Origin: Amoebidium appalachense
Lineage: Eukaryota > Protista > Ichthyosporea
Reading direction: 5' to 3'
Assembly: GCA_963693365.1 (NCBI GenBank)
Contig: CAVNZM010000004.1
Coordinates: forward strand, 206,448-270,447
Length of the DNA stretch: 64,000 nucleotides
Part shown: positions 1-54,192 of the stretch, piece by piece
How the letters are laid out: every line of letters begins with the position of its first letter
Numbering within the stretch: position 1 is the stretch's first letter
Made by a program: the position numbers and the translations under genes
Notes under the pieces: model-generated
The model's input: only the letters and a program-made list of their open reading frames with translations
The model's database searches: none
What the model was told of the DNA's origin: nothing

Positions 1-434
1 GCCTCGAGGGACGAGAAGTCATCAGGGAAAGACCCGAACATGGCCATGCGGATGCGCGAGTAGACGTCCTCGGCCACCTTGAACACGCTCACATCGGTGG
101 CCTCGTCGAGTGCGGATCCCTTGGCGCCGTTTTTGTTGATGTCGACACCGAGATTGATGACACATCCAAGAATAAACCCAACTGCGTCCAATGGCTGCAG
201 GCGCCCCTTGCAGGAACCGACGACCTGCTGGACGGCGTACAGGCCACGCCATACATAGAGCGAGGCCCGGTCGGCGACCGGCGCCGACACGCACATCTCG
301 CGCGCATAGTCCTTCTTCTGCCTGATCAACAAGTGCTTTGCGGCCTTGACGTCATTCTCTGATGTGGGGCCGGTGGCCTTTTTCAGCACCAGGTTGGTGG
401 TGTTTGTGATGTTTGCTTTGTCGTACTTGGGCAT
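1..434 (-). CDS. Hypothetical protein, runs off window start (MPKYDKANITNTTNLVLKKATG...)
   Basis: ATG at 434 with an open frame to position 1, read by hand; absent from the ORF track because no stop lies in the window. Confidence 0.6.
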   Translation of the reverse strand, partial: MPKYDKANITNTTNLVLKKATGPTSENDVKAAKHLLIRQKKDYAREMCVSAPVADRASLYVWRGLYAVQQVVGSCKGRLQPLDAVGFILGCVINLGVDINKNGAKGSALDEATDVSVFKVAEDVYSRIRMAMFGSFPDDFSSLE

Positions 435-472
435 TTATAGCGGCCACGGAAAATATTGGGAGGCACCGTGCT

Positions 473-733
473 TCAACCACTGAACCTGCTGATCATGCGT
501 GCGATGTCGCCGAACTTGGCGTTGGCCATCTTGGGAAACAGTGGGGCAAGGGCGCGGTCCACCTTGATCTTTTGGCCTTCGGCAAGACCTTTCTTCTTGG
601 CGTACGCCCACACCGCCTTTACGATCTGTCCACGCGTGGCCGACGACTTGTGCATGAAGCCCTTGAGGGGGGGATTGAGCTTGACGGGACGATTGAACGC
701 CGATTTCGTCTTGCGCGTGTAGCATATGGCCAT
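473..733 (-). CDS. Stand-alone SWIB/MDM2 domain protein
   Basis: AFNRPVKLNPPLKGFM...TRGQIVKAVWAYAKKKGL...KIKVDRALAPLF matches the SWIB consensus (R.evvk.lW.Yik...L...I.cD..L..lF). Confidence 0.85.
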   Translation of the reverse strand: MAICYTRKTKSAFNRPVKLNPPLKGFMHKSSATRGQIVKAVWAYAKKKGLAEGQKIKVDRALAPLFPKMANAKFGDIARMISRFSG

Positions 734-789
734 TGCTCATGTCGACAATAAAATCCATGACTGCAAGGACCCGCCACTGTTCTGTGACT

Positions 790-1569
790 CTATCTGACCT
801 TGACGTTGAACTCCTGCGGCAGCGTTGGCCCCGCCACCATGTCCGGGATGGGCATCATCGGCGCGTCCGTGTTCGCCAGCCCGCGGATCTCGGCAAAGTC
901 GTGTGTGCGGATCCCCCTGCGTGCATGCACCACCTTCTCTGGGTCCACGCGTGCCGGGTTTGTCGCGTATGTCGGTAGCGGCGGCCGCACGCCCTGCTGT
1001 GCATCCTCCCTGCTGTTCAGCACGGCCTCCGGCCGGGCTCCCTCGTTGCGCATGTTGCCGTTGTACACTGGCGCGCGCGTGCGTGTGCGGTACAGCTCAC
1101 GCATGTAGTTGCTGCGCGACTGCTGTTCCTCGGGATGCACATGGCCGTCGACGGCAGCACCTGCCAGCACGGCCACGGTCTGGGGGAGGGGTGTGCGGTC
1201 GGCGGCGTTGGCGGCGTCGTCGAAGGGCTTCTGCCGTTGGTAGGGCGAGAGGTAGCGGAATCTGCCGTAGTGCTCGTCATGGGGCACCTCCATGACCTTG
1301 GTGTTGAGACGGTCGAGGGGGTTGAACGGCCGATTGAGGCCGAGGGCGTCAGTGGCCCCGGCGTGCGGTGCATAAAGGGTGTTCCTGTCGAGGTTCAGGT
1401 TAGGCTGGAAGTCTGCGGGGGACAGGGGCGGGGCGGGCTTGGACGGAGGGTCCGGGTTGTCAAACCCCCAGGCCTGATAGAACGGATTGCCTTCGTGCGA
1501 ACTCACGTACAGGTAGACCACCGCCAAACACACGATTGCAAGGGCGAGCTCCGAGTGCGAACTGTCCAT
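790..1569 (-). CDS. Hypothetical protein with N-terminal membrane anchor
   Basis: 259-aa ORF with hydrophobic LALAIVCLAVVYLYV; tiles with neighbouring minus-strand genes. Confidence 0.65.
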   Translation of the reverse strand: MDSSHSELALAIVCLAVVYLYVSSHEGNPFYQAWGFDNPDPPSKPAPPLSPADFQPNLNLDRNTLYAPHAGATDALGLNRPFNPLDRLNTKVMEVPHDEHYGRFRYLSPYQRQKPFDDAANAADRTPLPQTVAVLAGAAVDGHVHPEEQQSRSNYMRELYRTRTRAPVYNGNMRNEGARPEAVLNSREDAQQGVRPPLPTYATNPARVDPEKVVHARRGIRTHDFAEIRGLANTDAPMMPIPDMVAGPTLPQEFNVKVR

Positions 1570-1627
1570 TGAGAAGGGCTACATTAATGCCACCGCCACG
1601 GGTTGGCGCTGTTTATTGCCTGTGCGC

Positions 1628-2137
1628 TCAGCGCCGGCACACCTGGTAGTCGACCACGTACCGCACGCGGTCCCGCAGCGTCCGCAGGTGGCTGACCCCA
1701 AACAGCCGCCCGTGCTTGTTGACCTTGCGGTCAAGGCACACCTCGAGCGCGCCCTCGCACGGCCGCCACTGGTTGTCAGGGCACAGGATCTCGAGCGTGA
1801 CCTTGGTCAGGCGCACACTCTTGTGGATGTTGCCGTTCGAGTCGATGGTGTTGGACTCCGTGTACGGCACCAGCGGCTTGCGCCCGTCCATTAGGCCCCA
1901 GCCGTTGGCCACCTCCAAGTCGACGTAGCTGTTCTCAGACCCCACATCGTACACCAGCTTGAACGTCTTCTTCTGCCCCGCCACGCGCACCATCACCATG
2001 TGCGTCTTCGAGCACTCGGGGATCAGGAACACCGGCACCTTGCTGTGCCGCGTCGACGTCCGCCGCACGCACGTCTCGAGCCGTCGTGCCCGGCAAGCGC
2101 AGCCGCGCCCTCTGGCTTTGCGTTTTCGTTGATGCAT
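1628..2137 (-). CDS. Retropepsin-like (clan AA) aspartic protease
   Basis: LVYDVGSENSYV resembles the D(T/S)G(A/S) catalytic motif, followed by a flap-like DSNG and a C-terminal RLFGVSHLRTL (ILG.d.L-like). Confidence 0.6.
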   Translation of the reverse strand: MHQRKRKARGRGCACRARRLETCVRRTSTRHSKVPVFLIPECSKTHMVMVRVAGQKKTFKLVYDVGSENSYVDLEVANGWGLMDGRKPLVPYTESNTIDSNGNIHKSVRLTKVTLEILCPDNQWRPCEGALEVCLDRKVNKHGRLFGVSHLRTLRDRVRYVVDYQVCRR

Positions 2138-51992: not shown

Positions 51993-52008
51993 CGGTGTGT
52001 TAATTGAA

Positions 52009-52329
52009 TTAAAAGTCCGAGTGACTTGTTTGTCTCAGAGTGGTGTCGTACTCCGCAGCACCCGTCTTCTTATTGAAATAGTATATGACTGCATACACCA
52101 ATGGTGTAACCAATAAACATGTGAGGACAATAGCAGCGCTGACGTACACCAGATACATTTTGTTCACTTTCTCTCTAGCATTCGGTTCGGACTTCATTAA
52201 ATTGTACCAGTGTATATTTGCAACGACACTGCATATAGATATCACATAAAGAATGCCTGTGGTGACCGTGCTGTCGAACATGTACGTGTACCTCACAAAA
52301 CTTTCAGTATCCGACGTGTTACACCCCAA
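52009..52329 (-). CDS. Possible two-TM membrane protein; start uncertain
   Basis: Two hydrophobic helices, AT-rich and intronless; no ATG at the ORF start. Confidence 0.4.
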   Translation of the reverse strand: MGCNTSDTESFVRYTYMFDSTVTTGILYVISICSVVANIHWYNLMKSEPNAREKVNKMYLVYVSAAIVLTCLLVTPLVYAVIYYFNKKTGAAEYDTTLRQTSHSDF

Positions 52330-52585
52330 AAGTGACCTCTCTGAGATCTTGCCTGTGGTACAAACTCTTGATGCCGTGTTGCTCTTGTGTTTTACCAGTA
52401 CCCCTCTCTCCAGATGCCGAATTTAGATTGGAATTCGTGAATACACCCATGTGATTGGTCAGTGGTTTGGCACCAAGAGATTGATTGATATGCCATCAAC
52501 CAGTCAACAAAAAGTACTCGCTTTTACTTTTTGTCTCGCTTCACCCCAATCCAAGAACAGTGCACACCAAAACAAAACACTAGAA

Positions 52586-53068
52586 ATGGGAGACGCACTT
52601 TTGCGCCCCGATTCGGTTGACCCCGAACGATGCCCTGCATTTGCACCCTCAAAAAAAGCCCAGTGCAAAAACAAAAAGAAAACATGCCCACACCACAAGG
52701 ACGGCTTCAAGCCCTGGGTATGCTTTGCCCCTGCCACCGGTGTCCTCCTCTACAGCGACAACACCATCAACATCCTCCACCCCCACAAGGCCGGGGACTA
52801 TGCTCATGCAAACCTCCTGCTGGACGACCTCCTGGCCGCCTTTACAGTCGCAGAAATGCAGCGCCCTCGCACCGAGCGCACCGGGGTACCCGCGCTGACT
52901 GTGTCCACTCCGGATCCACCCATGGGTGCACCACAGCCACCGGTTGCAGCTGCAGCGGTGGGTGTGGGCAGGGAAAATGGGTACTGCCAGGGCAAAACCA
53001 AGGCTGGCAATCCCTGCAAAAACAGGGTGAAATCTACGACCCATTGCCATAAGCACAAGCCCAAATAA
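52586..53068 (+). CDS. Protein with two C-x-C-x-C-H zinc motifs (DUF5763-like), intronless
   Basis: RCPAFAPSKKAQCKNKKKTCPHH and YCQGKTKAGNPCKNRVKSTTHCHKH. Confidence 0.7.
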   Translation: MGDALLRPDSVDPERCPAFAPSKKAQCKNKKKTCPHHKDGFKPWVCFAPATGVLLYSDNTINILHPHKAGDYAHANLLLDDLLAAFTVAEMQRPRTERTGVPALTVSTPDPPMGAPQPPVAAAAVGVGRENGYCQGKTKAGNPCKNRVKSTTHCHKHKPK

Positions 53069-53791
53069 AAAAACCACCCACACACCCACACGTGCCAACA
53101 TACACTATCCTCCCCGTGAGTGGCATGCCAGTCTCCCCAGCCCCCCTGCTCCCCAGTCCCCCCTGCTCCCCTGCTCCCCTGCCCCCCTGCTCCCCTGCCA
53201 CATGCACACCCACACACTGGGTGGCCCCCCAGCCCCCCTGCCTGCCGGAACCAGGCCCCCCAGTGGTGGCATTCCAACACGTGCATGCTAGAAGATCGTG
53301 CTACATGAACAAATGGTCTTAACTCAGCCATACACACAACCATGGTTCCCCCACTCTCCCCAGCCTCCTGTGCACGTGTGCCTCCCCCCCCCTGCCCCCC
53401 TGCCCCCCCCTGCTGCCGGAACCACGGCCCCCAGTGGTGGCAGTGAGTGTCCCCCCTGCCTCCCCTGCACGTGTGCCCCCCTGCCTCCCCTGCACGTGTG
53501 CCCCCCCTGCCTCCCCTGCCTCCCGGAACCACGCCCCGGCGCAGTGGCAGCTATTTTTAGATATAGAGATTCCATGGCCACATGGCCAGATGGCCAGATC
53601 ATTTTGCTCACCGTTTTATCCCGTTTTATCCACCTTTTTCCACACACTGAATTTGACCTGGCCATCTGGCCATCTGGGTAGAGACCGTTTTCTGTTCTGA
53701 TATTGGAGAACTGTCTGATAGTGATAGCAAATGTCATTCGAAGAACAATCGGGAAACCCCGTGGTGTGACAACCAATCAGAATGAAGCAAT

Positions 53792-54192
53792 ATTGGGATA
53801 TTCGGGTTGGTTGTAAGGTTTTCCGGGTCGGGCCGAAGGCCCTAACGGGCCGCAGGCCCGCCTATTGGGCCGCCAGGCCCTAGGCCGCCAGGCCCGGGGC
53901 CCCGGGGACCGGGGGCCCGACCCGGCCCGCGAGCCACCCCCGGCCCGGCCCGGCCCGGCCCGCGGGGGCCCGGCGGCCCGGGGTTAGCAGCCGCTGCTAA
54001 CCCCGGGCCGCCGGGCCCCCACGGGCCGGGCCGGGCCGGGCCGGGGGTGGCTCGCGGGCCGGGTCGGGCCCCCGGTCCCCGGGGCCCCGGGCCTGGCGGC
54101 CTAGGGCCTGGCGGCCCAATAGGCGGGCCTGCGGCCCGTTAGGGCCTTCGGCCCGACCCGGAAAACCTTACAACCAACCCGAATATCCCAAT
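53792..54192. repeat. 401-bp near-perfect GC-rich palindrome
   Basis: 200-bp arms ATTGGGATATTCGGG...GGTTAGCAGC and GCTGCTAACC...CCCGAATATCCCAAT around a single C at 53992; one mismatch seen (53963/54021). Confidence 0.97.

Follow-up and report, generated by a model that had tools for sequence, protein, structure and literature searches.

Amoebidium appalachense carries 90 chromosomal giant endogenous viral elements (GEVEs), close to Mamonoviridae, none of which holds the full set of core genes (Sarre et al. 2024, PMC11244446). They were reported from a long-read, micro-C assembly, and their insertions vary between isolates. Their most enriched cargo consists of multi-exon, JmjC-only genes resembling KDM4, with the exons kept, which occur in 39% (52) of insertions; aquaporins are likewise enriched (PMC11244446). 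A spliced viral gene is plausible because Medusavirus, which lacks an RNA polymerase, carries putative spliceosomal introns in seven of its genes (PMC6450098). Here we analyse a 64,000-nt stretch of A. appalachense contig CAVNZM010000004.1 (the window). We think it probable that the window contains the right-hand portion of a giant-virus genome (Nucleocytoviricota) inserted into the chromosome, made up of a compact block at 1-36 kb and a satellite-rich block with a JmjC gene that is likely cargo.

Within the compact block, 35 open reading frames (ORFs) chosen by codon score cover 84% of 1-28,209 and 77% of 1-36,054, bearing out the compact intronless genes that an initial annotation, made from the sequence alone, had noticed there. 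Most of these ORFs are orphans and few are named by Pfam. Families typical of nucleocytoplasmic large DNA viruses (NCLDV) are present: A16/G9/J5 (via a relative), KilA-N, a RuvC-like resolvase and a lead to DUF5901. Best matches to cellular homologues had been named as the outcome that would speak against a viral origin, and no searched gene had a named cellular best match. The initial annotation had read the window as a GEVE adjoining host DNA, with a gradient of host-like remodelling; the endogenous giant-virus segment beside eukaryotic genes is supported, the gradient is not.

Viral markers and other genes of the compact block

The following features were mapped in the first 36 kb.

1-36,054, no strand: compact virus-like block, intronless, extending past the window's left edge
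473-733, reverse strand: stand-alone SWIB/MDM2 protein (Pfam PF02201, E 1e-12)
2,491-4,692, reverse strand: 733-aa orphan with a lead to DUF5901 clusters of Nucleocytoviricota (ESM Atlas 0.83)
5,146-6,588, reverse strand: A16/G9/J5-like Cys-rich protein with C-terminal membrane helix, 480 aa, named via relatives
6,588-7,340, reverse strand: aquaporin (MIP; PF00230, E 7e-45)
9,490-10,188, forward strand: MSV199-like protein (Pfam, below cut-off)
12,288-12,962, reverse strand: Nudix-like protein, weak (Pfam E 0.02)
13,763-15,444, reverse strand: two Bro-N-like paralogues, 57% identical, one frame change each
19,917-21,274, forward strand: orphan weakly like the 733-aa protein (E 0.017), frame change near 21.05 kb
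21,443-22,780, reverse strand: KilA-N protein (PF04383, E 4e-10)
23,725-24,402, forward strand: RuvC-like Holliday junction resolvase, Ydc2/A22-like (Pfam, phrog_159)
24,785-26,342, reverse strand: third Bro-N-like paralogue, by paralogy, frame change near 25.43 kb
31,807-32,160, reverse strand: small nuclease-like family paralogue, by paralogy, with a frame change
32,832-34,325, reverse strand: DUF5906 superfamily 3 (SF3) helicase without primase domain (Pfam E 1e-19)
34,381-34,836, reverse strand: C2H2 zinc-finger protein (Pfam)
34,863-36,054, forward strand: two small paralogues, 56% identical, the last genes of the compact block

The best NCLDV-specific marker here is the 480-aa A16/G9/J5-like Cys-rich membrane protein, as judged from its relatives. 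A full HMMER scan found seven of these, one of which (P0033) passes the Pox_G9-A16 cut-off (25.2 bits vs 24), and the family profile gave a weak match over the same region (E 0.39) to OPG104, which we take to be poxvirus J5. The protein itself has no direct match in Pfam or the PDB, and ESM Atlas (0.75) gave no family, so that the A16/G9/J5 call of the initial annotation survives through P0033 and not directly. A fold search with a low-confidence model (pLDDT 43; a second structure model was also poor, at 34) ranked proteins of Tupanvirus, Indivirus and Mimivirus as its top three, none at E <= 0.001. Locus searches with the A16-like alignment, P0030, the helicase and the 52,490 ORF were without match. 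Another relative, P0032, is annotated as a hypothetical protein of Daphnia sinensis and comes from a 183-kb contig of an assembly of that species. Amoebidium lives on freshwater arthropods, and P0032 may come from a related virus, or from a GEVE, whose DNA was assembled together with that of the water flea; our literature search found no paper joining D. sinensis with a giant virus.

The other virus-type families claimed at the outset fared unevenly. The resolvase is RuvC-like, while the A22 assignment in particular falls short, with Pox_A22 at 17.7 bits (cut-off 22) and Ydc2 at 23.7 bits (cut-off 23). Nudix comes down to the one weak match. KilA-N and Bro-N families are indeed represented, by one KilA-N protein, one weak MSV199 and three Bro-N-like paralogues, only one of which matches Pfam Bro-N (E 0.05, below cut-off); their supposed expansion is not seen for KilA-N, which is single copy. 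The SF3 helicase is real as DUF5906 and is not the core D5 protein, because 27 of its 28 matches are primase-helicases at 22-36%, the other being one nameless protein at 46%. Scans of 30 proteins each against PHROGs and NCBIfam added only RuvC-like, primase-type and KilA-region matches, and PDB sequence searches returned nothing significant for the A16-like protein, the resolvase, JmjC exon 2 or both penton candidates. The latter are the 733-aa orphan, which has no PDB match, and the orphan at 19,917-21,274, and we assume that they are possible penton or minor capsid proteins. DUF5901 is mentioned in no paper found in our literature search.

The aquaporin has relatives at 26 IMG/VR loci (31-53% over the best segment), against which the other 40 window proteins, one of the 40 read in the wrong frame, gave no match. 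The protein at 31,807-32,160 presumably carries a nuclease motif, and the two paralogues at 34,863-36,054 belong to what we take to be a PD-(D/E)XK-like family. Frame changes affect five of the virus-like ORFs and are spread through 14-32 kb; they may reflect decay or assembly error. Rfam families and tRNAs gave no match.

In its stand-alone SWIB and C2H2 proteins the viral block likely encodes further regulators of chromatin or transcription. About 2.4 kb inside the block (28,210-30,620) is without a convincing ORF, and its short GC-rich repeats recur at 31.4-32.4 kb and 35.6 kb. Moreover, a 76-nt repeat (24,544-24,619 vs 26,563-26,638, 89% identical) lies upstream of adjoining genes. Two other element types were set aside. 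For an Adintovirus or Polinton-like virus, a gene set of ~30 kb with protein-primed PolB, integrase and capsid is expected, and none of these turned up among compact genes spanning more than 36 kb. For a Plavaka-associated giant repeat, in which repeated genes are expected in tandem clusters, there are only two small paralogue families and no Pfam match to a tyrosine recombinase or Plavaka transposase.

The JmjC gene and the satellite-rich block

To the right of the compact block the window contains the following.

36,072-36,144, forward strand: intergenic motif of ~75 nt, 83% identical to 13,090-13,163, followed by a tandem repeat in both copies
36,138-37,725, no strand: first satellite, ~50-bp unit plus poly-C/CA, running from the viral motif to a terminal inverted array
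37,846-38,535, forward strand: two short ORFs without introns or a family match, one of 130 aa (membrane plus Cys-rich) and one of 86 aa
39,492-45,720, reverse strand: JmjC gene, seven exons, six GT-AG introns holding satellites
45,720-44,795, 42,348-42,014, 41,952-41,830, 41,009-40,903, 40,708-40,504, 40,233-39,997 and 39,596-39,492, reverse strand: JmjC exons 1-7
45,801-47,500, no strand: AT-richer, CCAAT-rich stretch (by motif count) between the divergent JmjC gene and coiled-coil ORF
47,835-49,274, forward strand: repeat-rich coiled-coil ORF with several frame changes
49,280-51,960, no strand: satellites with 135-, 148- and 28-bp units
52,009-52,281, reverse strand: 90-aa two-helix membrane ORF, intronless
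52,490-53,068, forward strand: intronless 192-aa ORF bearing two Cys/His motifs, without a family match

The JmjC gene encodes a predicted histone demethylase and is likely viral cargo. Its six introns, all GT-AG, measure 61-2,446 nt, and in three of them a CTAAC branch motif lies close to the acceptor. Exons 2-7 form 370 stop-free codons with the H-x-E...H metal motif, and their YGTD, HTED, SVN, GKKIW, YHFG and EAVNF follow the KDM4/5 active-site order; we presume the roles of these active-site residues. Exons 5 and 6 match Pfam JmjC, and exon 6 has 59 PDB sequence matches, 58 of them to the Jumonji family, with KDM5 and KDM4 structures at E 1e-12 to 1e-9. Scanning five of the seven exons as modelled gave no match to ARID, PHD or Tudor. 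A JmjN-like stretch in exon 2 was seen by eye only and has no profile or PDB match, whilst exon 1 is a long acidic orphan with a frame change at a 15-nt homopolymer. In four of the six introns a poly-C run lies no more than 6 bases from the donor, a style also seen in intron 2 of the host caleosin gene. GC content at third codon positions (GC3) is 0.48-0.71 in the three JmjC exons measured vs 0.83-0.88 in the caleosin exons. The gene is multi-exon and JmjC-only, as is the cargo of Amoebidium-type GEVEs.

This gene changes how the region reads. JmjC introns 3 and 1 account for the large satellites at 41.0-41.8 and 42.3-44.8 kb, respectively, and what had been taken for virus-like ORFs interleaved with satellites at 36-53 kb is largely the exons and introns of this one gene. 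Simple repeats (homopolymer or dinucleotide runs) amount to 31 nt over the whole of the first 36 kb (~1 nt/kb). The next kilobase, 36-37 kb, has 205 nt; the maximum, 486 nt, lies at 43-44 kb, and 52-56 kb has 0. The observed/expected CpG ratio is 0.82-1.05 left of 36 kb and 0.43-0.91 right of it, with no trend. The proposed gradient of host-like remodelling does not agree with a sharp repeat step at 36.2 kb, a value of zero beside the host at 52-56 kb and a trendless CpG ratio.

There is no clean junction at 36.1 kb. The first satellite unit follows directly on the shared motif, and at 37.8-38.5 and 52-53 kb there are still intronless ORFs. Both 13,090-13,305 and 36,072-36,212 consist of the common intergenic motif plus a tandem repeat, possibly a viral origin or promoter element. 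Further right, CCAAT[CT]A occurs 6 times in the 1.7 kb of 45,801-47,500 vs 14 times in 36 kb, and this stretch is likely a shared host-type promoter of the two divergent genes.

Sequencing runs X14, X15, X17, X18, X19 and X20 hold 0.26-0.35 of the 52-56 kb words, and X14 and X19, the two of the six compared with 54,050-56,050, show almost nothing there (gaps that may be a filter effect); by subtraction, 57-76% of the words to the left of the palindrome described below would be present in the six runs. We treat all three observations as leads only. The signal at 52,009-53,068 in these runs could come from a multi-copy end, free virus or strong transcription; there was no RNA run among the listed runs sharing words with 52-56 kb.

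The palindrome and the right junction

53,792-54,192, no strand: perfect 401-bp palindrome, 79% GC, GGCC-rich, with arms of 200 nt each (53,792-53,991 and 53,993-54,192)
55,104-57,454, forward strand: host caleosin gene, three exons spliced in frame, in the flank outside the element
59,292-62,949, reverse strand: host MBL-fold hydrolase gene, exons partly mapped, in the flank

The palindrome is a high-copy, insertion-polymorphic repeat, likely a miniature inverted-repeat transposable element (MITE) with G-rich ends. It is short and non-coding, has inverted ends and occurs in many copies with different flanks. Contigs were compared with 54,050-56,050 for 4 of the 24 listed runs. Summed contig depth of the outer arm vs the single-copy flank was 25,136 vs 44.1 in X1 and 978.5 vs 9.2 in X12, figures that are not copy numbers. 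The sequences after 54,192 differ between X1, X12 and X14 among the loose ends listed (13 of 30). In X1 a contig is identical to 54,165-56,050 and a loose end equals the palindrome's left flank, and therefore both palindrome edges exist in this run. Apart from 20 other letters and 13 gap letters, the host-side contig of X12 agrees with the window from 54,192 rightwards, whilst the 16 preceding letters misfit; the palindrome is therefore likely absent there. The triplets flanking the palindrome read A-N-T on both sides, inverted and not directly duplicated. MITEs of the PHIS superfamily, Pangu type, are the closest known kind and are likewise short, non-coding and high-copy, with inverted ends starting in GG if the element is taken as 53,795-54,189 (PMC4482050). 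They differ in that here the whole element is one perfect palindrome with inverted triplets, and no transposase was seen. Speculatively, the repeated element would end near 54,205 if contigs overlap repeats by 30 letters, as X1 record 8 seems to.

Perfect arms of 200 nt, lying where the element seems to end, might suggest that the palindrome is the terminus of a linear viral genome, a hairpin since opened. This we reject as the least credible of all the explanations considered, given an outer-arm depth far above the flank in X1 and X12, the varied flanks after 54,192 and an X12 host-side contig unlike the palindrome left of that position.

Position 54,192, previously taken as the right end, is the last base of a repeated palindrome. 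A right junction within the window remains plausible, as first proposed, with its place not fixed by what is a host repeat. Spliced host genes on the right, also part of the initial annotation, do begin at 55.1 kb, with the caleosin exons in frame and those of the MBL-fold gene beyond. We place the viral-host junction probably between 45.7 and 54.2 kb: right of 45.7 kb because of the JmjC gene, and as far as 54.2 kb because of the intronless ORFs at 52.0-53.1 kb. The MITE-like repeat was likely inserted at or near this junction.

Origin of the locus and comparison with known systems

If the window does hold the right-hand part of a giant-virus genome, its history may be pictured along lines drawn from PMC11244446. 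A nucleus-using virus related to Mamonoviridae would have taken up a KDM4-like gene as DNA, introns and host-type promoter included, and the viral genome would later have entered the chromosome through chance repair. The host would silence the inserted genome by CG methylation, and the predicted demethylase would counter H3K9me3/H3K36me3 silencing by the host (PMC11244446). The satellites would occupy the non-coding parts of the JmjC cassette and would not be a decay front advancing from the host. On this account, spliced DNA full of satellites next to a viral block need not mean decay or host flank.

Several results weigh against this origin. MCP (major capsid protein), PolB, A32 and VLTF3 were not found among the window ORFs scanned (Pfam, PHROGs, NCBIfam), confirming the absence of MCP and PolB noted initially, and neither was the core D5 primase-helicase; these negatives hold for the window, and the element extends past its left edge. 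The A16/G9/J5-like protein had no match in a word-indexed search of a 5.8-billion set, nor did the resolvase in that set, and the 27 primase-helicases related to the helicase are of phage or mobile-element type. Exon 6 of the JmjC gene scores slightly higher with KDM5A (51.2 bits) than with KDM4D (47.6) and so does not tell KDM4 from KDM5. The poly-C/CA tracts in the JmjC introns resemble those of the host caleosin introns, which fits a host origin in place, and searches with the ORFs at 47.8-53.1 kb show no tie to viruses.

The separation of viral and host parts by long satellites and a high-copy palindrome favours an assembly chimera, in which free or co-cultured virus DNA was joined to host DNA via repeats. 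Nevertheless, X1 holds 0.86 of the 52-56 kb words and shows both palindrome junctions, the JmjC gene stays in frame across its satellite introns, and GEVEs of like make-up were reported from the long-read, micro-C assembly (PMC11244446); a chimera is highly improbable. Scarcely more credible is a single insertion progressively remodelled from the host side inward, as the initial annotation had it. The frame changes in five virus-like ORFs and two satellite-zone genes could be read this way, as could a first satellite that seems grown from a viral motif. Against this, simple repeats stay at ~1 nt/kb up to 36.2 kb, peak at 43-44 kb and vanish at 52-56 kb, the frame changes are scattered over 14-32 kb and JmjC exons 2-7 are intact. 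The main rival is that of two layers, with a young compact insertion ending near 36.1-38.5 kb beside an older, host-adapted stretch, which would be either a KDM4-like paralogue of the host or what is left of a previous GEVE, retained for its JmjC gene. It would account for the abrupt repeat step at 36.2 kb, the poly-C introns of host style and the CCAAT-rich promoter, and a couple of KDM4-like genes, but only a couple, are reported among host genes outside the GEVEs, possibly as relics (PMC11244446). We nevertheless consider it unlikely, in that the viral motif continues into the first satellite, intronless ORFs reappear as far as 53 kb, GC3 of the JmjC exons lies below that of caleosin and most such KDM4-like genes are reported inside insertions (PMC11244446).

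Returning to an integrated giant-virus genome, a more far-reaching version of it, which we put forward as tentative and rather doubtful, is that 36-54 kb was the virus's own terminal cassette. The virus would have captured a piece of chromatin in host style, with an intact JmjC domain, a CCAAT promoter and introns filled with satellites. Two genes near 54.2 kb would form the conserved end of the cassette, near-identical among isolates and maybe present as free or multi-copy virus DNA. Were this true, an anti-silencing module would be carried at the integrating end, and the conserved end would offer a handle for integration sites and for the still unisolated virus.

The locus is likely a further example of the published Amoebidium-type GEVE, by analogy of its make-up, and the insertion is possibly among those already catalogued. 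It shares with these elements an intron-poor viral block amid intron-rich host genes, a multi-exon JmjC-only gene, an aquaporin and an incomplete core set (PMC11244446). Satellite-filled JmjC introns, a near-end position and a palindrome were not seen described there, and the terms 'inverted repeat' and 'simple repeats' are absent from the main text of that paper (PMC11244446). In our literature search it alone linked Amoebidium with KDM4, or GEVE with JmjC and Nucleocytoviricota; the part of the Ariadnavirales preprint available to us (10.64898/2026.08.29.747986) mentions neither Amoebidium nor JmjC. The lineage, which the initial annotation had deemed unassignable, is suggested by the cargo: an Amoebidium-type GEVE, reported near Mamonoviridae. 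Mamonoviridae are the reported relatives of these elements (PMC11244446), whereas, unlike Medusavirus, the window has no histones and is likened to this family via cargo alone, without a sequence link (PMC6450098). The JmjC gene resembles the KDM4/KDM5 histone demethylases in its JmjC matches and H-x-E...H motif, and differs in its long orphan acidic exon 1 and in giving no match to their ARID, PHD or Tudor domains. Beside these systems, the window offers a concrete locus for asking whether a histone demethylase sits at the genome end and whether it helps escape silencing or integrate. Taken as a GEVE, it is one more case within a published system; its value lies in its boundary anatomy.

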